A stretch of DNA of 64,000 nucleotides from Candidatus Hermodarchaeota archaeon (GTDB lineage: Archaea; Asgardarchaeota; Hermodarchaeia; Hermodarchaeales; Hermodarchaeaceae), in assembly GCA_016839365.1 (NCBI GenBank), contig JAEOUH010000069.1, positions 1 through 64,000 on the forward strand. Reading direction: 5' to 3'. Shown piece after piece: positions 34,000-47,935 of the stretch (position 1 is the stretch's first letter; the number at the start of each line of letters is the position of its first letter). The notes beneath the pieces are model-generated. The model was not told where the DNA came from and did no database searches. It worked only from the letters and a program-made list of their open reading frames with translations. Made by a program: the position numbers and the translations under genes.

Positions 34000-34674
34000 A
34001 TGCCAATCTTGGTATCAGATTTAGATGGAACCCTTCTCGATGTCCGAGACCGGTTCATCCATGCACAGATCAATGCGCTAGCGGATTTCGGATACACAGT
34101 GACAATTGAGCAGGTCAGTCCACTCACAGAATTTACGATGGATTACAAACAATTCCTCGGAGGATTAGATGTCCAACTTTCCCAAGAGGACCTCATCCAC
34201 TATTTCCTACGTATCGAACAGGAATTCTACAAAGGCTGGCAATACTCCTATGTGTTTCCTGGCGTCATCGAAGCCCTTAAGGAGATCCGTCCTCGCGTCG
34301 ATGCTCTACGTTTGATTACATCACGGGCGTGGGTTGAGGAGACACGGGACGAAGTCAATCATTTTGGATTGGATATCCTCTTTGATCGTCAAGTGGTTAC
34401 TCGCGGTGACTTGGCTCGTGCCGAGGGCGTCCAAGAAGTTCCGCTCTACCCATTTTTAGATCATCGGCAACGACTAATCCAACTTGCCATTGCTGACCTG
34501 GAAACACCAAATGATGTCTGGGTAATCGGTGATTCACCCAATGAAATGGAAGCAGCACAGAGACTAGGATATACCTCGGTTGGGGTATTAACTGGTTTCT
34601 ACACACCTGAAGCCTTGGACCCGTATTGCACCCACGTCCTCAATTCAGTAGCAGATATCGACACCCTTCTCTAG
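34000..34674 (+). CDS. HAD-superfamily hydrolase (paralog 1)
   Basis: DLDGTL motif I, ITSR motif II, VIGDS motif IV. Confidence 0.85.
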   Translation: MPILVSDLDGTLLDVRDRFIHAQINALADFGYTVTIEQVSPLTEFTMDYKQFLGGLDVQLSQEDLIHYFLRIEQEFYKGWQYSYVFPGVIEALKEIRPRVDALRLITSRAWVEETRDEVNHFGLDILFDRQVVTRGDLARAEGVQEVPLYPFLDHRQRLIQLAIADLETPNDVWVIGDSPNEMEAAQRLGYTSVGVLTGFYTPEALDPYCTHVLNSVADIDTLL

Positions 34675-34739
34675 TTTGTGTTCAGTTCCTGACATAGTCA
34701 AGCTTATAACCGAACTAAACCTCCATCCCCCCAGTCACA

Positions 34740-35417
34740 ATGAAGTTGAAAGCATTCCTTTCCGACCTCGATGGCACCCTCATCGATACCCGAGAAAGAG
34801 CTATCCACGCCCACGCTAGCGGTCTGCACAGTATAGGTTATGATGTAACAGCCGAACAGGTACAGAGTCTATATCGATACTCCTTTGATACACGAGATCT
34901 CCTCAACCGCTTAAACATTCAGCTCTCAGAATCCGAGTTCATCCACTATATCATGGGTTTCCGTGAATTCTTCTTTTCACATTCTGAACTCTCCCATATC
35001 ATTCCAGGCACCATCGAAGCGCTCGAAAAGCTTCAACCGCAAATCGAACACATGCGAATTATCACATCACGACAAGACAGTGACCAAACTCGCCAAGAAA
35101 TCCGACGCTTTGGATTCCACAAGTGGTTCGAGGACATTTTCACTCGTGGTGACTTGGCCCAAGCTGAGGGCAAAGATCGCATTCCCCTATTCCCATATCT
35201 CCCCCACCGTCGCGGACTTATACGATTGGCTGTACAAGATGTCAAGACCGAAGGTGACGTCTGGGTGGTCGGTGATTCGGCGGGTGAATTGGAAGCCGCG
35301 AAAAGCCTCGGATGCTTCACCATCGGTGTCCTCACGGGATTTGGTACTAACGACGATTTAGCCCCCTTCGCTAGTCGCATATTCGACTCTTTCAAGGAAA
35401 TTGTGCAACTTATCTAA
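34740..35417 (+). CDS. HAD-superfamily hydrolase (paralog 2)
   Basis: DLDGTL, ITSR, VVGDS; clearly similar to the upstream gene. Confidence 0.85.
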   Translation: MKLKAFLSDLDGTLIDTRERAIHAHASGLHSIGYDVTAEQVQSLYRYSFDTRDLLNRLNIQLSESEFIHYIMGFREFFFSHSELSHIIPGTIEALEKLQPQIEHMRIITSRQDSDQTRQEIRRFGFHKWFEDIFTRGDLAQAEGKDRIPLFPYLPHRRGLIRLAVQDVKTEGDVWVVGDSAGELEAAKSLGCFTIGVLTGFGTNDDLAPFASRIFDSFKEIVQLI

Positions 35418-35435
35418 GACACTACAATATGGTTT

Positions 35436-36905
35436 GTGGACATGTCTCCCACACCCTCTCAACCCACCAACTGTGACACCGATTCCACACGATTTGACAC
35501 CCGACAGTATCAAGAACATATCCTCCGACGAATCAAGGAAAACCGGAACCATAACATCTTGGTAGAATTAGACTGTGGGCTAGGCAAACGCGTCCTCACC
35601 TACAAATTAGTCACCGAGCAGTTTCCACAAACCCGGTTCATCATCACAGTCAACTCGTCATCCTCACTTCAAGAAACCGCCCAATATCTGGAAAAAGAAT
35701 ACGGCGGTGTTGAAGGCTTAGGTATCCTGGCTCCCAACGTTCAAGGACCTCATCGTGAACAACTCTTGCGAGAATCTCGGGTAGTCTTGTGCACACCTCG
35801 AGTGCTAGCCAACATTCTTAAAAAAGGCAATCTGACGCCAACCAACTTCGACGGCTTGATGATCAACGAAGTAGACACTATCATTAGGCGGGTTGGACAG
35901 GAGCGGGTGCTTATCCAACCGTGGAGTTATCTCCTCGAATTCTTTAAAGACAATTGGATTATTGGGCTCAGCGGTACCCTTCGCGACGATCATGTAGTGT
36001 TCACTGAAGAGCAGCTCCAGATCCGTAATGAACTCCAAACCCTTGCAGTGTTTCTACCTAACGTCGAACTGATCAGCATGAACGAATTGGCCGACACTGA
36101 TTTGAGCGAGTTCATCAAACCCACAATCTTGGATGCGGTTCCAGTCACCAGTCCAGTGATTCGAGCCACCTCCCTGGTCATCGACGACCTCATCCAATCC
36201 ACCCGGGAAGAAATTCACCAAAGGGTTCGCGAAGAAACCGGTCAGTCGATAGGGGAACTTCCAGAATCCACACGTATTCTACATTTAATCCTCCACGAAC
36301 TCCCCATCTCAGAAGAACTCGCTCAAAAATACAGCGGACTCCTAATGACCCGGAAATATTTGTACGGCATGGCATCTAAAAGCTTCCGCCGCTACCTCCA
36401 CCACCCCACCCTCAAATCTAACATCGATGTTAACCGCATGATGCAGGATTGGCCTAAAATCACTCCCAAATCACTGAAAGCCCAAGAGCTTGCATTAAAC
36501 GCTGACAAAACCGTCATCCTTACCTCATACCTCAACGTCGTCAGTGAAATAGACAGCTTGCTCAAAGTGAGGGGAGTAAATACTTTTCAACTCACCGGAC
36601 GCACCCAAGACAAACAAGCAGTGCTATCACAATTCAAACAGGCCAAACCACCTGCCGCAGTCATTTTATCTCCGGTCGGTGAGCGTGACCTTGACTTACC
36701 CGATGCCGATTTGCTTATAATTTGTGATACCGTCAATACGACGAAAACGGTCTATCAGAAAATGAAGCGTAGCCGTGGTGGACGAGTTGTTTTCTTGGTG
36801 TATGCAGACACCTCAGAAGTGGAGAAACTCCGACGCCTCCTAGATAACATCATGGAGCGGTATCCCTGGTCATCACGACTCGGCGATATGAAAGATTTGC
36901 GCTAA
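35436..36905 (+). CDS. superfamily-2 helicase-like protein (Hef/FANCM-like) with degenerate motifs
   Basis: RQYQ Q-motif, LDCGLGKR, VLCTP, INEVD, GLSGT, GERDLDLPDAD, QKMKRSRGGR. Confidence 0.7.
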   Translation: MDMSPTPSQPTNCDTDSTRFDTRQYQEHILRRIKENRNHNILVELDCGLGKRVLTYKLVTEQFPQTRFIITVNSSSSLQETAQYLEKEYGGVEGLGILAPNVQGPHREQLLRESRVVLCTPRVLANILKKGNLTPTNFDGLMINEVDTIIRRVGQERVLIQPWSYLLEFFKDNWIIGLSGTLRDDHVVFTEEQLQIRNELQTLAVFLPNVELISMNELADTDLSEFIKPTILDAVPVTSPVIRATSLVIDDLIQSTREEIHQRVREETGQSIGELPESTRILHLILHELPISEELAQKYSGLLMTRKYLYGMASKSFRRYLHHPTLKSNIDVNRMMQDWPKITPKSLKAQELALNADKTVILTSYLNVVSEIDSLLKVRGVNTFQLTGRTQDKQAVLSQFKQAKPPAAVILSPVGERDLDLPDADLLIICDTVNTTKTVYQKMKRSRGGRVVFLVYADTSEVEKLRRLLDNIMERYPWSSRLGDMKDLR

Positions 36906-38112: not shown

Positions 38113-38736
38113 ATGACCACCCACAATCAGCATTCCAAAGAAGAATCAACAGCTCCTACGGTCTTTCCTGTCTACGTCTTTGAGAGAACTAGCAAATCAA
38201 TCTTCAACTATTGTCTCAACAAAGCCACAGGGTCATCTCCGCGTGAAGCCCTGGGCGTCGTTCTGGGCTTTCGTCGACAATGGCAGGGAGAGAAGTATAT
38301 CCGTATCACCGATTGGGCCACCGGACACGTAGAAGCCAGTATTGCCCATGCCCGGTTCACTCCAGAAGGTATCCTCGAATATCGGCTTACCCTGCACGAT
38401 CGGTATGGCAATAATCCCCATTCTCCTCGCGTCGTCGGCCTCTGGCACTCCCATCCCTTTGGTGGCGATCCGCAGTTCTCCTCAACGGATTTACGTACAT
38501 TCTTCAACACGCCTTTCTGTGCTGAGGGCAACGTCTTCTTTTTGATTGATCCCCTCAGCCGGATCTTCAAAGTGTATATGCTTCGACCACGGCCCGAACA
38601 GCCCGGCTTACAGCTAGAAAGGGTAGAATGGTGTACCTATCGTCCATCAGTCCCCGCTGGGGAACCAATGCTTCAGGATAACTCGCTAATCCATGAGGAG
38701 GAAATGCGTGATGACGAAGAAGCCCACACCGATTGA
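38113..38736 (+). CDS. JAB/MPN+ (JAMM) metallo-isopeptidase
   Basis: REALG (catalytic Glu) and VGLWHSHPFGGDPQFSSTD (HxH-x7/8-SxxD), LIDP. Confidence 0.9.
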   Translation: MTTHNQHSKEESTAPTVFPVYVFERTSKSIFNYCLNKATGSSPREALGVVLGFRRQWQGEKYIRITDWATGHVEASIAHARFTPEGILEYRLTLHDRYGNNPHSPRVVGLWHSHPFGGDPQFSSTDLRTFFNTPFCAEGNVFFLIDPLSRIFKVYMLRPRPEQPGLQLERVEWCTYRPSVPAGEPMLQDNSLIHEEEMRDDEEAHTD

Positions 38737-39574
38737 TTTAGAGTATTTTGAGAAGGATCAGCATGATCGAACACGACGCTGGTTGGGGGCTACCAATCTT
38801 GAGGCCGTTCGTCAGTCAACGGTACTGATGGTGGGCGCAGGGGCAGTCGGGAATGAGGTCTGTAAGAATCTCGGCTTGTTAGGGGTTGGGAAAATCGTTT
38901 TGGTGGATCCCGATAAAGTGGCCGCCTCCAATTTGAACCGCTGTGTTTTCTTTCGTCCAGGAGACCACGATATTAAGTTCAAAGTCGATGCAGTGGCTGA
39001 GCGGCTCCCTGAACTCGCAACCGATACAGTGGTTGAACCACATGCCATACCGATACAGGTTGCACCGGACGAAGTGTGGGATGTTGACTTAGTGTTGGTC
39101 GGTGTTGACAACCATTATGCCCGCTACCTGCTGAATGCTAAAAATCTCAGCATCGAGCCACCCTTGCCAGTGATAAATGGGGCTATGGGAAAGGACTTCG
39201 TGTCAGTTGAAGTCCTCGCGCCACCAAAGACAGCGTGCTTGGTGTGTTCGTGGAGTAAAGACTTCGTCGATCATGTCATCACCAACGAAGTACGCACACG
39301 ATGTGATCCTTTCTTTGTTGACACTATGCCCCGATTTCCCATGATTAGTTTTGTTACCTCCGTTGTGGGCGCAGTGATGGCGTGGGAAGCCACAAAGATG
39401 CTTGCTGGATTACAGCAGTGGCGTCTAACGGGGCAATGGCAGGAGGGGCTCAAACCAGCACTTGGCCGGTTCATCCAATACGACTTACACAAGCATAAAT
39501 CCATGACAGGACCAATTATGGCAAATCCACGGTGTACAGAAATTTTCTGTCGCGATAAGCGGAAACATCTCTAA
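38711..39574 (+). CDS. ThiF/E1-like ubiquitin-like activating enzyme
   Basis: VGAGAVG, DPDKVAASNLNR, VDNHYAR, TACLVC, downstream RCD (candidate catalytic Cys), C-terminal PRCTEIFC; overlaps the JAB stop. Confidence 0.92.
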   Translation: MTKKPTPIDLEYFEKDQHDRTRRWLGATNLEAVRQSTVLMVGAGAVGNEVCKNLGLLGVGKIVLVDPDKVAASNLNRCVFFRPGDHDIKFKVDAVAERLPELATDTVVEPHAIPIQVAPDEVWDVDLVLVGVDNHYARYLLNAKNLSIEPPLPVINGAMGKDFVSVEVLAPPKTACLVCSWSKDFVDHVITNEVRTRCDPFFVDTMPRFPMISFVTSVVGAVMAWEATKMLAGLQQWRLTGQWQEGLKPALGRFIQYDLHKHKSMTGPIMANPRCTEIFCRDKRKHL

Positions 39575-39578
39575 CCCG

Positions 39579-41180
39579 TTAGATTAAACCAATGGTCTTC
39601 TGCCAGACCGTTGAAGTCGGTTTCTGATCAGCCCACAAGCGTAGGTTCAGAGTTACTTTGGGGGCTCCATTTGGCATAGGGAGGTTCATCCAAATATTCA
39701 CAGGGGAATCTAATCGAGGTGCGAAGGGTTCAATAGCCACTACCTGGTCCATAAGGCCGTCTGAAACGGTTGCTGTCATCACCATTTGGTCTAACGGATG
39801 GGCACTGCTTGGTTTTGGAATCAATGAGACCTTCAAGGGCAACGTACTCCCACGTGGGACAGCATCAGGGGCGTTAACCTCTAATTCTGCGGGGGCTTCT
39901 CTCAACCGGGCGGGAACCGATTCGGGGACACCCACCACTCGTTTTACTTTCCACCCGGTCTCAATCTTGGGCTCAGAACGCTCTCCCTTTTTTCCATCAA
40001 TGGCAACAGTATCAGAGTACCAACTGACTTTGAATTCTTGGCGGACGCGAGTATCCATCCAGTTTCCGATGATAAGGGGAATATGACGGTTTGTCACTCC
40101 TAACAATCCCATGGCCCCATGCCAGGTCGGATCAACAGGGATCCATTGACCCCGAATCCAAATTTCACTCCAAGCATGACGCTCCCAGGACTGCCCATTA
40201 TAAGCATAACCCGCTTCCAATCGGGCTGGTATTTTGTTCGCGCGACACAACGCCGCAAATAAAGCGGCATATTCAGTGCAATCACCAACCTGCTTTTCGA
40301 TAGCATAAGCTGCTCCTCTTTCATACTCTTGACGAACATACCGCATCTTCTTTGTAACTGCCCTCATCGCTGCTTGTGCAAATTGTATCGGTGTTGAATG
40401 ATCTTTAGCAATATCTCGGGCAAGATCTTTGATGAGGTGGTGGTGTGATTCTATGAAATTTTCTGGTTGGGTGAACTTAACGATATTGGATGGAAAGGCT
40501 GAGTTGCGAGTTTCTGGCGGAATATTATACCGTAGTGCGCGATTCCGAATGAGAGCTGTGTACCCACAGGTAAAGGCTTCTCCAACAGCAAGACTAGCTT
40601 GATGAAATCGTATCCATTGATTTCCGATTGTATCATTCTGTTGTTGTCCATCCTTCGGAGAGAACTGGATATCAAGTACCGTTTGCCGAGGAGGCAGCGA
40701 AGGCGGAGCAGCTATTATAACTCGAACATTGCTGATTCGAGCACGTGTAATGTTCTTCACAGTCGCTGAATAATTGACCCTGTGCACTACAATTGGTGGA
40801 TGTCCTCCTTCAAAGCGAAAGCATCCCATGACATAATGATCGTCGGGAGGTCCTCGATAGGGATACTTATCGATTGCGGCTTTGATGCGGGTTTCCTGCA
40901 ATGCAACAACGATTGTATAGAATCCAGACAGCAGATTTGCCGTCAGTGGCACACTAAATTCACCTGTATTAGTCTTACCAAAATGAAACGGGACCTTACT
41001 CACCATTCGCCCGAAGGGATCAATGATGTAGACGATCCCATTGTCAACCTTTACATTCGATTTTGCTTGACCCTTTCGTTTCAACTGAATAGAAATCCGT
41101 TGACCGGCTTTAACACTCGGAACACCATCTTGCCTCGTAGGGGCGATAATTTTCAAAGACACGGGAAGATTACTCGTCAT
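39579..41180 (-). CDS. transglutaminase-like cysteine protease/ligase with flanking Ig-like beta domains
   Basis: GDCTEYAALF..LCRA..IPAR, HAWSE, WIPVDPTW (Cys-His-Asp triad); no signal peptide. Confidence 0.88.
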   Translation of the reverse strand: MTSNLPVSLKIIAPTRQDGVPSVKAGQRISIQLKRKGQAKSNVKVDNGIVYIIDPFGRMVSKVPFHFGKTNTGEFSVPLTANLLSGFYTIVVALQETRIKAAIDKYPYRGPPDDHYVMGCFRFEGGHPPIVVHRVNYSATVKNITRARISNVRVIIAAPPSLPPRQTVLDIQFSPKDGQQQNDTIGNQWIRFHQASLAVGEAFTCGYTALIRNRALRYNIPPETRNSAFPSNIVKFTQPENFIESHHHLIKDLARDIAKDHSTPIQFAQAAMRAVTKKMRYVRQEYERGAAYAIEKQVGDCTEYAALFAALCRANKIPARLEAGYAYNGQSWERHAWSEIWIRGQWIPVDPTWHGAMGLLGVTNRHIPLIIGNWMDTRVRQEFKVSWYSDTVAIDGKKGERSEPKIETGWKVKRVVGVPESVPARLREAPAELEVNAPDAVPRGSTLPLKVSLIPKPSSAHPLDQMVMTATVSDGLMDQVVAIEPFAPRLDSPVNIWMNLPMPNGAPKVTLNLRLWADQKPTSTVWQKTIGLI

Positions 41181-41565
41181 TATCTCGACCTACTTGGTCG
41201 GCTTCAGAGCGGGATTCGATTCCTTCTTCTTCTGGAAGAATAACTACTTTTCCACCCAGTGGTTGAGGTGAGCGTCGGGGGACATCGCCCAATATTCTCA
41301 CAGATGTTCGTATCTCCGTAGGTTGGCTTCCTAAATCCAATCGGGGACCCAAAAACCGAGTAAAGTGTGGAGAGTGGGCTTCACCGCCACGAACGATTGC
41401 TCCGGGACAGGTGCCTTGCCCTGATTCTAAGAAGAGGGCACGACACGAAGGACAAATATAGCTACCACAGACTGTACAAATCCACCATTGGCTCCGTGCA
41501 TTTTCAAGTGAAACTTGAGTGGCACAAGCCGCACACCGCATTTGGGATGCACCATGTATACTCAT
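41170..41565 (-). CDS. RING-like/PHD-like Zn finger with SIM-like tail (candidate E3)
   Basis: C-x2-C-x15-C-x2-C-x4-C-x2-C-x11-CP-x9-H; tail RTSVRILGD and KVVILPEEE. Confidence 0.65.
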   Translation of the reverse strand: MSIHGASQMRCAACATQVSLENARSQWWICTVCGSYICPSCRALFLESGQGTCPGAIVRGGEAHSPHFTRFLGPRLDLGSQPTEIRTSVRILGDVPRRSPQPLGGKVVILPEEEGIESRSEADQVGRDNDE

Positions 41566-41789
41566 GATGGTCTCTCCTTAAGCTCACGTCGTTTCTTTTT
41601 ACCATGAATTCTAATGGAATAATAAGGCGAAAAGTTGGGAGGTCGTTCTTCTTCAAAAGGGATGTCTCTCTCTCGGAGAATCTGAATCCGGGTTTCCCTC
41701 TCAGATTCATTCGTTGATTTTTCAGGTTCTTCCTCATACTCGTCGGGGCTTTCTTTCTCCTCTGAAGGTGGATCCGACATAATTGACAC
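41562..41789 (-). CDS. small acidic/disordered protein with SIM-like motifs
   Basis: 75 aa, Glu-rich, RIQILRE and SIRIH; 5 nt from the E2 stop and ATGA overlap with the Zn-finger gene. Confidence 0.55.
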   Translation of the reverse strand: MSIMSDPPSEEKESPDEYEEEPEKSTNESERETRIQILRERDIPFEEERPPNFSPYYSIRIHGKKKRRELKERPS

Positions 41790-41794
41790 CTCGT

Positions 41795-42547
41795 TTATCT
41801 CTCATCATCAAGAATCCGAACCGATGTACGTCTACTTGGTTTATCCAAAACGCGGGGCGCCCTTCGAACAGATTCCGCGCTTGATGATGAGGACTCAAGT
41901 ATGCGTACACGTCCCTGCCGTGAAGCCGCAGCTGGCCCATCCTTGTGCTGGGCTTCCCAGAGCTGATCAAGGGTTTCAACGATTCTGTCTGCATCTTGCT
42001 CATACCATGCCATAGCCGCCATATTTAGACCATGATCGGATTGAAACTGAGATGGTGGTTCTACTCGGTCTGGTTTTAACAATACAAAAAAGGGGAGATC
42101 TTCAAGGATACGATCTAATTCTCCACGAACCGAGTAGCAGGCATGTCCAGTCCCGCTCGCCGCCAGTCTGGGGTGATACAGGGGCGTTTCTGCTACAGGT
42201 CGAATGGCGCCTATGTTCTGAGGGTACTCTCGGGGCAAATCAAAGATGAATCGATGCTCATAACGTATGGCGCTTGTATCCTCAAGGTTTCTGGGTTTAC
42301 GAACGAAGCCGGGGAGATTACGCATAGTAAAGCGAATCCGTTTAAAAGCTCCATCGCGATATCGGGCGATGGTGGAAACGGTGAAATCGCGATTGCTCCA
42401 AGCTGTGTCTTCGCGGTGCGGAGGATCTGGATCCCACCCTCGTCGTCCAAAGAGATTGTTCATAGTGTCAAAAAATGTCTGAATCTGGGTTTCCACTCTG
42501 GCGTTAAACAGCTCAGTAGAGAATACTGGTCGGGTCACGATTATCAC
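41795..42547 (-). CDS. E2/UBC-fold ubiquitin-like conjugating enzyme
   Basis: FIFDLPREYP, TPLYHPR (HPN-like), GHAC (catalytic Cys position), LNMAAMAWY helix; low-complexity tail. Confidence 0.8.
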   Translation of the reverse strand: MIIVTRPVFSTELFNARVETQIQTFFDTMNNLFGRRGWDPDPPHREDTAWSNRDFTVSTIARYRDGAFKRIRFTMRNLPGFVRKPRNLEDTSAIRYEHRFIFDLPREYPQNIGAIRPVAETPLYHPRLAASGTGHACYSVRGELDRILEDLPFFVLLKPDRVEPPSQFQSDHGLNMAAMAWYEQDADRIVETLDQLWEAQHKDGPAAASRQGRVRILESSSSSAESVRRAPRVLDKPSRRTSVRILDDER

Positions 42548-42591: not shown

Positions 42592-42912
42592 TTATTGTCC
42601 GACTTCAGGGACTACATCGAGGAGGAAGAATTCATCATCGGTGATTTTTGGTTCTAGCTCCCCGAAGGTTATACCTGGACTTAGCCGGGTGGGTTCAGGG
42701 GCTTTACGGATGAGCACAAATTCTGCACGCTGGTCCCCGATTTTCGCTTTAGCCCAATCGTCAATACTGACGCCCTCATCACGGGCCTGGGTGACAAGAG
42801 TGCGGATGACTTCATCGACACGGGTATCTTCATCAATGCCGATTCGGAATTCCTTTTGACGGGGCTCAACATCGACGATGATTGAGCGCCAAAATCCTTC
42901 ATCTTTACTCAA
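42592..42912 (-). CDS. ubiquitin-like (beta-grasp) protein with a capped C-terminal glycine
   Basis: SIIVDV..KEFRIGIDEDTRVDEVIRTL...FVLIR..LSPGITFGEL..ITDDEFFLLDVVPEVG-Q; TTG start after GGTGA; first gene upstream of E2. Confidence 0.72.
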   Translation of the reverse strand: MSKDEGFWRSIIVDVEPRQKEFRIGIDEDTRVDEVIRTLVTQARDEGVSIDDWAKAKIGDQRAEFVLIRKAPEPTRLSPGITFGELEPKITDDEFFLLDVVPEVGQ

Positions 42913-43154: not shown

Positions 43155-46049
43155 ATGACCACTAGGCACAAGCCATCCTTATCAACTTCACCAATCGTGT
43201 TTCGTAGTATCCGTCTAGTGAACTTTGTCATTCACCGTGATACCACAATCCAACTCGATCAATCCCCTGTCATTCTTATTACAGGCTCCAATGGAAGCGG
43301 AAAAACCTTGATTCTCGACGCCCTGTTGCTCGCAATTGGCGTTGAATCTCGAAGAGCCCAACGTCAACGCAATTCGGCTTTCATCGGTCGATTCGAGAAA
43401 TATGCTGAAGTCATTCTAGAACTTAACAACTACCAACTCAATGGGCGACGAGTCTTAAGAAGCCCCGATCCTACCATGTCTGCGCTTCTTGATAAGGACG
43501 TTGTGTCGATCCGGCTACGAGTCGATGAAACAAACCGAATATCCTATTGGTTGAATGAAAAACGATCAGTGAATGGCCATCAGATTGCTCGTAAAGATAT
43601 TCGGAAACTCTTCCAAGCTGCTGGACTCTTTGGAGATTCTCCCTTAGCTGTTACTGAGGCTGAGACTTTAGACCACTTTGCCTCCCAATCTCCACGACGA
43701 AAGTTCGAGACTCTCCTGAACGAAACTGGGCTCCGTAATTGGATGGAAAAACTCGAGGAAGCCCGTCTCCTCGTATTACAGGCAAGAGCCAATGTCAAGC
43801 CCCTCGAATACCGGATCCGCCATGAAGAACAGCGCCTCCAGGTTCTGAAGGCAGCCTATGAAGCTTTTCAACAAAAACAGCAGCTCCAACAGAGACAGAA
43901 GGATCTCGACGTTGAAGCGGCCTGGGCTGAAGTGGCTTATCGTGAGGAGCTTGCTAGCCAACTCCAATCACAAGTTACCAGTCTGGAAACCCAACTCTCC
44001 GACCAAAATGAGAAATTGGACAAGTTAGACCAAAGGAAAACCAGCTTGAAAGAGAAGTGCGAAGCGATTGAAGCAAAACGGGAAAAGCTCCTAACAACCA
44101 TGGACTCGCTACACGATGAGCGGTTGCAAGCACAAGGCCATCGGCGAGGGCTAGAGAATGAACTCAAAGGCATGCTAAATCGAACAGAACGATATACCAA
44201 GCGTCGGAAGCCCGCAACAGGCAAAATTGACGCCATTCAGAAGGAGTTAGCAACGATTATCCAGGATCGAGATGGCATCGATGATCAACTCGCTCAGGTC
44301 CGACAAGATATTGCCTCAACGGAAGAGTACCTCTTTACCAAACCCCAACGGTATCCACATTTTGAAGAGACAATACTTCGGGGCTGCCTCCGATACCGGT
44401 CTGAACTTGATAAACTCGCACTCTCTGATGCAGTGATTGGGCCCCTTTTTGCGCTCATTCGTATGAAACCGGAGTATGCACAGTACGAAACCGCGGTCAA
44501 ACTGGCCTTGGGACGCTACTCCTATGCATTCATTGCTCTGAATCGAGAGGTCTTCGTTGAGGCTAAAAACTTGTATGATCATCTCTGGCCACATGAAAAG
44601 CCAGATCTGGTGGTCGCCCGGACAAATCCCACGACCGCGATAACGCGAGATCGCCCAACGGTTTCTTTACCCGTGATTGGTTGGGCAGCTGATCTCATTG
44701 AAGGGGATATATATGCCATTAGTTTCCTAAGCCGTGTCATAAACACAGCTATCGCGGAGGAAGGAGCCGATCCCAACACGCTAGTCGATGCCTCTCAACA
44801 ACTCAATTGCAACATCATTACTAGTGAAGGAACAAGTCATTATCTCCGAATCGGCGCCTTTGCCCGACCACCCCGACCCGTTACGGTAAGTTTGGATGTC
44901 TCTCTCAACGATTTGGGACTAGCCCAGGATGGCGCTGATACACGCATTCAACTCCGTGAACTTCGTGAACAAGAAGCTAAACTGATGCGAGACCGAATGC
45001 GCATCAATTCTGAAATAAGTCAACTTCGGGCAACCCTCCAAGACCTTCAGCAAGTGCACATATCTCATCTTTCTGATGGGGAAAGAACAGCCCTGGTCAC
45101 TAGTTCTGAACATCGAGTCGCTGAATTACAACAACTGATTCTTGAACTGGAAACTGAATGCGACAGGCTTAGCCAAGATTATCAGGAATATAACTTAGAA
45201 TTATCACCGATCCATTCCCGACAGCAAAAACTATCCGAACAACTCCAAAACCTTGACCTTCGACGATCACGCCGTCAGGTTGAAATCAACCACCTCGTTG
45301 CAGAGCTCAAGCAACGCGAAGATGAATATGAGCATCTCATTAAACAAACCAAACATTTCCGTAAGGCTGCCACAGCACTGGGAGAACGCCCTCAGGCTGT
45401 TCGAAACCCTACTGCGATTCGTGATGAACAAATCCAAATCCAGGCGATGATTGATACTATCACCGCCACAGCAGACGATCGGCAAGCCTTTGAAGACCAG
45501 GAACAAGTCGTCTCCCAACTCCAAGACTACCTCAAACAACGTCAGCTCCACTTAGAAAATCTGATGACGGACGTTGATCGAAGACTTCTCGAGTGGAGAC
45601 GGCAACTCCAAGAGACGGTTGAAATCCTCAACCACCGTATGAACCAATTACTCAGCCACTTCCTCAAGCAAGTCAAACTGCTTATTCGATTCCCCGATGA
45701 ACCCAGTCGTGCGGAGCTCCACCTTCAACTTGCCATTAACCGCAAAGGCGACTGGCGGACCTATCAAGAAATGTCTGGGGGCGAACGGGTCCTAGCCACC
45801 CAGACTTTCATTTTAGCCCTACACACTCTCGCCAAGAGTCCCCTCCATGTGATTGATGAATTTACCCAACGCCTCGATGAAGCAAGCCGTGCAGCTATTC
45901 TCAGTGTTGTTCAACGCGCCCTCGATTTAACCCAAAAAGACTCACTAATTCATCCACAGTTTCTTCTAATGGCTCCCTCCACGGTCGGACTCGAGATCCC
46001 AGAGACTATGCACCACGTCGTGCTGATCAAAGGACAGGTGAAAGTCTAA
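43155..46049 (+). CDS. SMC5/6-like ATPase
   Basis: IRLVNFVIH, Walker A GSNGSGKT, long coiled coils, hinge VIGPLFALI..AVKLALG..AF, signature MSGGER, Walker B/D-loop HVIDEFTQRLD, H-loop QFLLMAP. Confidence 0.88.
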   Translation: MTTRHKPSLSTSPIVFRSIRLVNFVIHRDTTIQLDQSPVILITGSNGSGKTLILDALLLAIGVESRRAQRQRNSAFIGRFEKYAEVILELNNYQLNGRRVLRSPDPTMSALLDKDVVSIRLRVDETNRISYWLNEKRSVNGHQIARKDIRKLFQAAGLFGDSPLAVTEAETLDHFASQSPRRKFETLLNETGLRNWMEKLEEARLLVLQARANVKPLEYRIRHEEQRLQVLKAAYEAFQQKQQLQQRQKDLDVEAAWAEVAYREELASQLQSQVTSLETQLSDQNEKLDKLDQRKTSLKEKCEAIEAKREKLLTTMDSLHDERLQAQGHRRGLENELKGMLNRTERYTKRRKPATGKIDAIQKELATIIQDRDGIDDQLAQVRQDIASTEEYLFTKPQRYPHFEETILRGCLRYRSELDKLALSDAVIGPLFALIRMKPEYAQYETAVKLALGRYSYAFIALNREVFVEAKNLYDHLWPHEKPDLVVARTNPTTAITRDRPTVSLPVIGWAADLIEGDIYAISFLSRVINTAIAEEGADPNTLVDASQQLNCNIITSEGTSHYLRIGAFARPPRPVTVSLDVSLNDLGLAQDGADTRIQLRELREQEAKLMRDRMRINSEISQLRATLQDLQQVHISHLSDGERTALVTSSEHRVAELQQLILELETECDRLSQDYQEYNLELSPIHSRQQKLSEQLQNLDLRRSRRQVEINHLVAELKQREDEYEHLIKQTKHFRKAATALGERPQAVRNPTAIRDEQIQIQAMIDTITATADDRQAFEDQEQVVSQLQDYLKQRQLHLENLMTDVDRRLLEWRRQLQETVEILNHRMNQLLSHFLKQVKLLIRFPDEPSRAELHLQLAINRKGDWRTYQEMSGGERVLATQTFILALHTLAKSPLHVIDEFTQRLDEASRAAILSVVQRALDLTQKDSLIHPQFLLMAPSTVGLEIPETMHHVVLIKGQVKV

Positions 46050-46840
46050 TGATAACTAATGATACTTCTACATTTCTCCGTGCCTTTCCGCGCCGCAAGG
46101 CCTGGTATGACACTTTCCAATACAACTACAAGCGAACACGACTATCATCTTTTGGAACCAAAGGGATAGTAATTACGCTATGGAATCTGACCAAAAAGTA
46201 TGAGGTTGCCCTAAAACAGCACGATACGTTCCCGATTAAGGAAGCGGAGATTGACCGTGAAGAAGTTGCCGATGCATACCGCGTCCTTGATACCCCCTGG
46301 GAACGAACTCTCGATGGGCGTTTCTACTATAATCTCGCTTCAATGCAACATCACCGGGATTCTCAATTGGCTGCTCCTGAAATCGCTCCCGAGGAATGGA
46401 TTTCCCAATTTGCCAATGAGGTCAAACGACGCGCGACTCCGGTACTCTTTTTAATTAATCAAGAGCGGACCATCCCACCTTTCCAATTGCCTCCTGCTGA
46501 TTCGCCGGTCGCAATGGACGATGCCCCTACCCAAGATGATAAACAGGCTATGCGCAAACACCGTATCTCTTATGAAGAGATCTCCATAGACGCTCTCGGC
46601 GCTAGAAGGGCGGATATCCTGAAACGGCTACAAGGCAAACGATACAACTATGCAGCCCTATCCGAAATCCTAACCAACTGGGAACTCGATTTACTCAGCC
46701 AGATGATTCGGGATAACATCTGTCCTGCAACGTTCGAAAAAACGGCTATCATTTTTCGACACCCTCCACCTAAAACAAATCCTGCTTTCACTGCTGTTGC
46801 CATTACCGCACAAAACCATGAGGAGGTTCCTCGAAAGTGA
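46049..46840 (+). CDS. putative kleisin-like subunit (ScpA/Nse4 position)
   Basis: TAATG-coupled to SMC and GTGA-coupled to the KITE; helical N-terminus, Pro/acidic linker, possible C-terminal winged helix; call is mainly positional. Confidence 0.45.
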   Translation: MITNDTSTFLRAFPRRKAWYDTFQYNYKRTRLSSFGTKGIVITLWNLTKKYEVALKQHDTFPIKEAEIDREEVADAYRVLDTPWERTLDGRFYYNLASMQHHRDSQLAAPEIAPEEWISQFANEVKRRATPVLFLINQERTIPPFQLPPADSPVAMDDAPTQDDKQAMRKHRISYEEISIDALGARRADILKRLQGKRYNYAALSEILTNWELDLLSQMIRDNICPATFEKTAIIFRHPPPKTNPAFTAVAITAQNHEEVPRK

Positions 46841-47484
46841 CCTCAGATCCAATACCTACTGACACCATCTCTTCCACAAGCGAGGATTCAGAAGAAGAGG
46901 TGTTAGAGCAACGTCATCTCATTGGTCAGCTCTTTGCCGCCCTCACAGCAAGGTTTCGGAATGAGGAAGGCCAACTCAGCATCGGGGTCAAACGGCAAGA
47001 TCTTTTAGAAGCCCTTCATATCAATAAGACTGGCTTAGTCCGCCTCCTCGATTTACTCCGCCAGCAAATATCTCCCCTGGGGCTAGAATTGGTTGAATAT
47101 CGAATGGGACGGGACACGCTCTATTGTGTTCGAACCATTTACGGAGTTCCTGGCGAGCTCACTGATCCTGAATACGCCGTATTAGGAGTCATCATTTCCA
47201 CTGTAGAACAGGTGAGTAAACTCCATCGTCCACGCCGGGTGGCCACAAAAGACATCGAAACAATCCTTGTAGCCCGTGGGCGCCTCTCCCGCTACCAACT
47301 CGATCGTATTTTACGACGACTAACCGAGCTAGGCTATATTACGCGAACCGCACGACGAATTACTTACGGTCCACGACTCGAATTGGAATTTGATGCTGAA
47401 CGCCGTGAAGCCATCGCCAGCGCAGCAACCCTGTATCTCGCAGGGGCTACAGCTGATTCGGAGGAAGACCTGAATGAAACTTGA
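46837..47484 (+). CDS. KITE protein (tandem winged helix, Nse1/Nse3-MAGE/ScpB-like)
   Basis: LRQQISPLGLELVE, LTDPEYAVLGVII, LDRILRRLTELGYI, ITYGPRLELEF (GPR..E motif of Nse1/MAGE WH-B). Confidence 0.72.
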   Translation: MTSDPIPTDTISSTSEDSEEEVLEQRHLIGQLFAALTARFRNEEGQLSIGVKRQDLLEALHINKTGLVRLLDLLRQQISPLGLELVEYRMGRDTLYCVRTIYGVPGELTDPEYAVLGVIISTVEQVSKLHRPRRVATKDIETILVARGRLSRYQLDRILRRLTELGYITRTARRITYGPRLELEFDAERREAIASAATLYLAGATADSEEDLNET

Positions 47485-47935
47485 TCTCTCCACCGTTGGC
47501 ATCAGTTGTGTAGCCTGTGGAACCCGAATCACACTTGAGGAGGCAATCCAGAAGGAATGGCACCAATGTTTACGGTGTCAGTTCTTCATTGATCCCCATT
47601 GTCTTGGAATTGTCCAAAACACCATGGGTGGGGTCTGCCCCTCATTTAGCCAAGGAGTGACCCGTCATTCCTTGCAAGCTGCTGATATTCCTACAGAACA
47701 GATCCTCATATTCGTCAAAGATCAATATCAGAAAGGTCACGGAGGTGCTCTCATCGACTCCTTATTTTATACCAGACCTTCAGCTTTAAAGAAACCACAA
47801 CACCCAAGTCAAATGGAATCGAACTCTGAAGAACCTCTCACCCGAGAAGAAATCTGGCAACGCTTTGGACTCGTTTTAGTGCAGCGGTCCCAAGGTAAAT
47901 GGAAAACTTGGGAAAAAGTTGGCAGTACTAGCTGA
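47474..47935 (+). CDS. RING-like Zn finger protein (paralog of 41170-41565; Nse1-RING-like)
   Basis: C-x2-C-x16-C-x2-C-x4-D-x2-C-x11-CP-x8-H; overlaps the KITE stop. Confidence 0.65.
   Translation: MKLDLSTVGISCVACGTRITLEEAIQKEWHQCLRCQFFIDPHCLGIVQNTMGGVCPSFSQGVTRHSLQAADIPTEQILIFVKDQYQKGHGGALIDSLFYTRPSALKKPQHPSQMESNSEEPLTREEIWQRFGLVLVQRSQGKWKTWEKVGSTS

Follow-up and report, generated by a model that had tools for sequence, protein, structure and literature searches.

A predicted single-glycine ubiquitin-like modifier with its own E1, E2 and JAMM genes, linked to an SMC6-like operon in Asgard archaea

The 64,000-nucleotide stretch of Candidatus Hermodarchaeota DNA analyzed here (the window) carries an unannotated gene for a 106-residue ubiquitin-like protein (Ubl), which sequence and fold model best explain as the modifier of a private E1–E2–JAMM kit, separate from host ubiquitin and SAMP. 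We assign a probability of roughly 0.7 to a mechanism in which the JAMM protease trims the Ubl constitutively, the E1 adenylates Gly105, the Ubl is relayed to E2 Cys137 and conjugated to lysines, and the JAMM reverses the reaction. Its basis is the gene itself, the modeled fold, sequence conservation, and the linkage and co-occurrence of the kit genes; the chemistry is a proposal. The features of the Ubl are:

42592..42912, minus strand: Ubl, 106 aa; ubiquitin-type beta-grasp model, no Pfam family
42739..42765, minus strand: extra helix of the Ubl (residues 50-58), between helix 1 and strand 3 in the AlphaFold2 model, with invariant Trp53 and with Gly59 directly after
42598..42600, minus strand: Gly105, predicted mature C-terminus (Val-Gly) and predicted conjugation site, from Gly/Ala conservation in 102 homologues
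42595..42597, minus strand: Gln106, a one-residue cap, unconserved by homologue tails, tree and DNA alignment

The Ubl open reading frame starts with TTG and its last codons, GGA CAA TAA, encode Gly105-Gln106-stop, so that the C-terminus is VVPEVGQ rather than GG, as the first-pass annotation had read it. Orthologues are present in 17 Hermodarchaeota-type genomes (84-99% identity), and the Hermodarchaeota DNA is conserved at codon positions 1 and 2, varies most at third positions and ceases to be conserved at the Gly codon. Because of these orthologues and this codon-position pattern, the reading frame is, on sequence grounds, a genuine gene.

AlphaFold2 modeled the Ubl with a pLDDT of 86.7, placing strands at residues 9-15, 20-26, 63-69 and 94-102 and helix 1 at 32-45, and all structure searches with the model returned ubiquitin-type beta-grasps, in agreement with the fold expected earlier. 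Matches to ubiquitin, SUMO, FAT10 and EccD5 reached Z 9-10.8 (rmsd 2-2.5 Å over 75-88 residues). EccD5, kindlin F0, FAT10, SUMO, ubiquitin, Caldiarchaeum subterraneum ubiquitin and BilA were effectively tied, with Z 10.1 for BilA (8tyx), 10.3 for the C. subterraneum protein CsUb (6fnn) and 10.3 (TM 0.68) for EccD5/YukD-type entries among the best matches; the fold matches listed did not include UFM1, MoaD or Urm1. A Pfam scan of the Ubl gave no family above cut-off, and YukD matched its family weakly and below cut-off (6 of 26 members, best E 0.017). An extra segment after helix 1 had also been noted, and the helix at residues 50-58 bears this out; the extent then quoted, residues 43-60, does not stand, as it includes the last turn of helix 1, and the true insertion is therefore about residues 47-61. 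Trp53 and Gly59 are invariant across 19 diverse aligned homologues, and the alignment identifies the insert as a trait of the whole family. The insert may make the Ubl specific to its private E1, E2 or JAMM. MoaD/Urm1-type beta-grasp carriers also have an extra helix at this point; the feature is not unique to this family. Together, sequence and model point to a ubiquitin-fold (beta-grasp) protein with a conserved small C-terminal residue, whose conjugation is predicted from gene linkage and catalytic residues.

The C-terminal glycine proved conserved: the residue after the last strand is Gly in 97 of the 102 non-redundant homologues and Ala in the other 5, preceded by Val in every aligned Ubl homologue. 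Divergent homologues whose last strand ends in Val-Ala include L062:10001-10306, L080:127-438, P0040, P0041 and P0044, and at L062 the cognate E1 comes directly after the Ubl. Tails beyond this residue are absent in 43 of the 102 homologues, one residue long in 29, two to five in 16, six to twenty in 2 and longer in 12, counts that take in close kin and are not independent events. The first tail residue has 14 identities and is Gln in 10 of 59 tails (10 of the 102 homologues). Among Hermodarchaeota a tail is present in 16 of 17 loci, and one orthologue (L013, 87% identical) ends at the Gly. Tailed and tail-less Ubls are intermixed among close relatives in five clades of the Ubl tree, whose deep nodes are weak and which supports no donor or direction of transfer. 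In family f12 (Gerdarchaeales-type genomes labeled Heimdallarchaeota or Gerdarchaeota at NCBI), all 10 genomes encode a tail-less Ubl together with the cognate JAMM, and catalytic residues are intact in all five f12 JAMMs aligned. A Gly that is conserved, beside a tail that is variable, often missing and that flips among relatives, indicates that the Gly is under selection and the tail is not. The JAMM probably trims the Gln-ended allele found here, and since tail-less lineages still carry an intact JAMM, it is probably kept for a reason other than trimming, of which deconjugation is the simplest.

The genes of the kit lie downstream of the Ubl on the same strand, followed by two on the other:

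41795..42547, minus strand: cognate E2, UBC fold, HPR-x9-Cys137 (profile and model), with a disordered tail bearing SIM-like peptides
41562..41789, minus strand: small conserved kit protein with a hydrophobic strand and a PPN motif, also present in bacterial copies
41170..41565, minus strand: RING-like Cys/His zinc finger, E3 candidate, paralogue of 47474-47935
39579..41180, minus strand: transglutaminase-like protein, whose linkage is frequent, not constant
38693..39574, plus strand: cognate minimal E1 with one ThiF domain, 293 aa (Pfam, invariant motifs)
38113..38736, plus strand: cognate JAMM/JAB protease with conserved catalytic residues

Pfam and PADLOC scans placed the E2 in no family. 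Its profile aligned Cys137 to the catalytic Cys of eukaryotic E2s, and its model matched UBC folds at Z up to 9.5 (UFC1, Z 6.6), a distant likeness with HPR in place of HPN and a TM-score by query of about 0.35. His-Pro-Arg and Cys137 are invariant in all 35 sequences, and the orthologues start three codons later, at a GTG at 42538. The linked JAMM and E1, on which the earlier reading depended, both look intact. All 25 E1 sequences share the nucleotide-binding motifs, the zinc cysteines and Cys204, the putative catalytic residue; the E1 profile scored UBA6 (1e-18), UBA1 and UBA3 ahead of UBA5 (5e-10), and the PADLOC BilD model covered residues 42-150 only (E 3e-7). In the JAMM, E45, H112, H114, S123 and D126 are invariant (19/19). 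The same genome encodes three further E1-like proteins and two further JAMMs, so the pairing of enzymes with the Ubl rests on linkage. SIM-like peptides resembling that of the small protein recur in the E2 tail (near 41795-41930) and in zinc-finger tails, including those of distant homologues; complex prediction of the Ubl with the conserved peptide of the small protein scored 0.05, which weighs neither for nor against binding. Nearly all Hermodarchaeota loci have the cluster flanked by tandem HAD-like paralogues and a helicase-like ORF (34000-36905 in the window). In an Asgard-like lineage (L064, L105), a row of Ubl, E2, small-protein and transglutaminase genes is flanked by genes for Arf/Ras-type GTPases, TackOD1 and a Pel-like glycosyltransferase.

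On its other side, across 242 bp, the Ubl gene diverges from an SMC operon:

43155..46049, plus strand: SMC ATPase, SMC6-like by profile scores, the second SMC of the genome
46049..46840, plus strand: ORF263, in the kleisin position of the SMC operon
46837..47484, plus strand: winged-helix KITE-like subunit, with weak Nse1/MAGE signals
47474..47935, plus strand: RING-like zinc finger, always last in the SMC operon by gene order, E3 candidate

A profile built from these SMCs gave its best scores with SMC6 (146-162 bits, near full length; next best, 111), a likeness in profile score, and the canonical SMC of the genome is separate, on contig C15. For the KITE-like subunit, signals were weak (SMC_Nse1 at E 0.002 in 2 of 12; MAGE cluster, 0.81). 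Profile searches with ORF263 gave no match, and neither its profile nor that of the KITE found anything in the PDB. The kleisin, KITE and E3 assignments are accordingly weak. A promoter scan of the 242-bp gap, of a kind that excludes archaeal promoters, gave no sigma-70-type promoter, and no terminator was found there.

Across the 400 Asgard genomes searched, 31 encode the Ubl, 32 the E2 and 30 the cognate JAMM subfamily, each in single copy; the three sets of genomes are nearly the same and come from families f1, f2, f11 and f12; in the sole Asgard genome with the E2 only, a contig break lies just upstream. The kit is tied to the SMC6-like operon across three gene orders. In Hermodarchaeota, the Ubl stands head-to-head with the SMC–ORF263–winged-helix–finger operon at all 16 loci with upstream sequence. 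In f12, a single row holds SMC, ORF263, KITE, finger, JAMM, E1, Ubl, E2 and small protein, and in f2 (labeled Asgardarchaeia) the SMC operon runs into JAMM-E1 with Ubl-E2 elsewhere. The KITE gene is followed by finger and JAMM in one f11 genome and by finger, JAMM and E1 in an f29 genome. Asgard families f6, f7 and f8 have this SMC operon but no kit (KITE in 62 of the 400 genomes), so the complex can do without the tag and the dependence is one-way. The SMC–ORF263–KITE–zinc finger operon minus the Ubl kit is seen at L067-L069, L076 and L078; in a complete genome (G015), the N-terminus of the SMC is duplicated as a 214-aa copy (L067:16636-17280, minus strand), about 2 kb upstream of the full-length gene. 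A transglutaminase homologue is still present within roughly 10 kb of the kit-less SMC operon in family f7.

Copies of the kit also occur in bacteria. A Ca. Coatesbacteria genome has a JAMM–E1–small–Ubl–E2 row, with SMC–ORF263–KITE elsewhere in the genome. A second bacterial clade (6 of 41 genomes examined) carries the first E2 helix (41-53 aa) as an extension of the Ubl beyond its Gly, and the catalytic part of this split E2 is a separate downstream gene (L111-L116; genomes G400 and G404-G408). The cognate JAMM, E1 and SMC6-like ATPase were found at scattered positions in 5 of 5 such genomes tested, and KITE was absent from 4 of 5 Ubl-negative relatives (draft genomes). Whole Ubl-E2 fusions exist among the homologues too. 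In their sequence, these fusions mark the Gly as a predicted cleavage point independent of any Gln.

The Ubl is distinct from the two other ubiquitin-like proteins of its host, as the first-pass annotation had inferred. A canonical Asgard RING–ubiquitin–E2–E1 operon lies separately (L106; genome G000, contig C71, 37318-41768) beside Vps23/UEV and Vps28 (ESCRT-I) genes. It matches Pfam ubiquitin and UQ_con, neither of which had a match in the Ubl kit; its ubiquitin already ends in GG, and profile comparison with the Ubl revealed no similarity. Pfam assigns the ORF at 1214-1498, which ends in GG, to ThiS (E 3e-13); this supports its earlier description as a SAMP/MoaD-type protein, and its profile comparison with the Ubl likewise gave no similarity (probability 6%). 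We therefore rejected the Ubl as a SAMP/MoaD/ThiS protein (single Gly rather than GG, no ThiS match), as canonical archaeal or Asgard ubiquitin (Val-Gly rather than di-glycine, no Pfam ubiquitin match) and as SUMO (no di-glycine end).

Among described systems, type II Bil (BilABCD) resembles the kit in its single beta-grasp Ubl with a conserved Gly and short variable tail, JAMM, E1 and Cys-E2, and confirms the earlier remark that prokaryotic defence Ubls can use a single Gly (10.1101/2023.09.26.559546). There, BilC cuts BilA at Gly97-Ala98 and also removes conjugates, and BilA tails after the single Gly reach nine residues, with one residue in Ensifer aridi (10.1101/2023.09.26.559546). In contrast to the IAD-AAD-CYS architecture of the Bil E1, the kit E1 is a lone 293-aa adenylation domain; the loop of the kit E2 is of the eukaryotic HPx...C kind, an extra helix is present in the Ubl, and the locus, with RING-like fingers and an SMC operon attached, is single-copy and conserved, not a defence island. 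Type II Bil was rejected as an identity for the kit on E1 architecture, on the lack of PADLOC BilA/BilB matches to the Ubl and E2 and on the alignment of the E2 with canonical UBCs. Type I Bub (BubAB-BubCD-BubE), where one Gly is the point at which BubCD cleaves a fused Ubl-E2 (10.1101/2024.11.21.623953), is matched by some relatives of the Ubl family in its fusion, single Gly and JAMM. However, Bub uses Tyr/Ser oxyesters and DUF6527, whereas the kit keeps Cys in both enzymes (E2 Cys137, 35/35; E1 Cys204, 25/25), and no Pfam match to DUF6527 (BubE) was found among the cluster genes scanned; the kit was not accepted as Bub on these grounds.

The E1-E2-RING-JAMM logic in an archaeon is shared with the ubiquitin operon of C. 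subterraneum and Asgard archaea, where the Rpn11 JAMM both trims pro-ubiquitin and deconjugates and where C. subterraneum pro-ubiquitin is refractory to E1 (PMC5654768); unlike the kit Ubl, canonical ubiquitin has a GG end and a Pfam ubiquitin match. The predicted mature end of the kit Ubl is Val-Gly, like that of UFM1. The UFM1-UBA5-UFC1 system combines a mature Val-Gly end, a short removable tail and a minimal E1. It was rejected for the kit, as the HPR...C E2 ranks canonical UBCs first, ahead of UFC1, and the linked protease is a JAMM and not UFSP. The E1 scored better with UBA6/UBA1/UBA3 than with UBA5. Overall, the sequences point to the kit as a second E1–E2–JAMM Ubl pathway, which is predicted to work like type II Bil and archaeal ubiquitin but departs at defining points from canonical ubiquitin, SAMP, Bil, Bub, UFM1 and SUMO.

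With eukaryotic Smc5/6 (Nse1 RING, Nse2 SUMO ligase), the locus shares an SMC6-like ATPase, KITE-like and RING-like partners and a link to Ubl conjugation; here, though, SMC and KITE are each single, the zinc finger stands alone and the Ubl is a private one other than SUMO. Archaeal SMC5/6-related operons have been published, and the passages searched in that paper attribute the ubiquitin/SUMO ligase link to eukaryotic innovation and make no mention of the Ubl kit (10.1101/2024.01.07.573240). The literature searched, which took in few subscription papers, contained no description of an SMC-linked Ubl kit.

In the mechanism that we favor, the Ubl would be made with one residue past Gly105, which the linked JAMM would probably remove constitutively. 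With similar confidence, we expect the E1 to adenylate Gly105 and to pass the Ubl via Cys204 to E2 Cys137 and then to target lysines, and the conserved job of the JAMM is likely deconjugation. If the JAMM cuts after Val-Gly whatever follows, the tail would therefore drift neutrally, between none, a few residues and, in some bacteria, a fused E2. We put about even odds on the linked SMC6-like complex, or proteins engaged by it, being the targets, with the RING-like finger as E3, in parallel with SUMO and ubiquitin acting on eukaryotic Smc5/6. A narrower reading, in which a prokaryotic Smc5/6-type complex has this undescribed Ubl family as its dedicated modifier and the RING-like subunit of the operon as the ligase, is tentative, and we hold it at somewhat below even odds.

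The rivals to this mechanism differ from it either in the role given to Gln106 or in the fate of the Ubl. The first-pass annotation had proposed that JAB must clip the terminal Gln before E1 can act, which would make Gln106 a selected mask and its regulated removal an activation checkpoint. By analogy with C. subterraneum pro-ubiquitin (PMC5654768), the Gln-ended allele would not be adenylated at Gly105 before trimming; the near-constant tail of Hermodarchaeota (16 of 17 loci) and the separate transcription units of JAMM-E1 and Ubl-E2 in this genome are also consistent with a checkpoint. However, a special role for Gln sits poorly with 14 identities at the +1 position, with tails absent in 43 of the 102 homologues, with their gain or loss among relatives such as L013, with DNA conservation that ends at the Gly codon, and with the 10 of 10 tail-less Gerdarchaeales-type genomes that keep the JAMM, and we regard a checkpoint as quite improbable. 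The lack of Gln conservation equally leads us to set aside Gln106 as substrate of the co-transcribed transglutaminase in an ATP-independent ligation, to which we give the faintest chance of all: a transglutaminase-like gene does close the Ubl operon in several lineages, but only 10 of 102 homologues have Gln after the Gly, and the enzyme gene is linked to Ubls with other or no tail residues and persists near the SMC operon in Ubl-less genomes.

A different target with the same chemistry would be expected of a Bil-like anti-virus system that marks proteins of viruses or other foreign origin and in which the SMC senses foreign DNA in the manner of Wadjet or Smc5/6. The parts list and single-Gly style match type II Bil, the spread is patchy with transfer into bacteria, and the kit has been lost in some Asgard families that retain the SMC operon; against this, the kit is single-copy, near-universal and syntenic within families, with housekeeping neighbors and a Ubl 85-99% identical across a family, none of the PADLOC models covers the Ubl, the E2, ORF263, the KITE or the zinc finger, and searches of viral contigs and plasmids with E2 queries found no relatives. 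Defence is thus unlikely. It is harder still to credit the Ubl as a non-conjugated beta-grasp protein, either a sulfur carrier or a YukD/EsaB-like adaptor. EccD5/YukD-type proteins and kindlin F0 are among its top structural matches, YukD matched 6 of 26 members weakly and MoaD/Urm1-type carriers share the extra helix, but the Ubl is strictly paired with a Cys-E2, E1 and JAMM, bears no profile resemblance to the ThiS-family protein of its own genome (the 6% comparison above), and has no sulfur-pathway or type VII secretion genes near its locus.

A masked single Gly is by itself ordinary, as type II Bil shows it too. The interest lies in the family, a second, orthogonal E1–E2–JAMM pathway predicted in Asgard archaea, invisible to Pfam and tied to an SMC6-like complex. 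As a four-protein kit of 106-293 aa, it makes the view of the Smc5/6 ligase link as a eukaryotic innovation testable in vitro. The series of tails (none, one residue, a short peptide, a fused E2 helix, a whole E2) suggests that Ubl pro-peptides can arise without selection, given a deconjugase. If the reading of the Ubl as a dedicated modifier of the complex is true, the bacterial JAMM cut at the Ubl Gly would also free part of a split E2, and Ubl ligation would have been joined to Smc5/6 before eukaryotes arose, as a unit that can move into bacteria.
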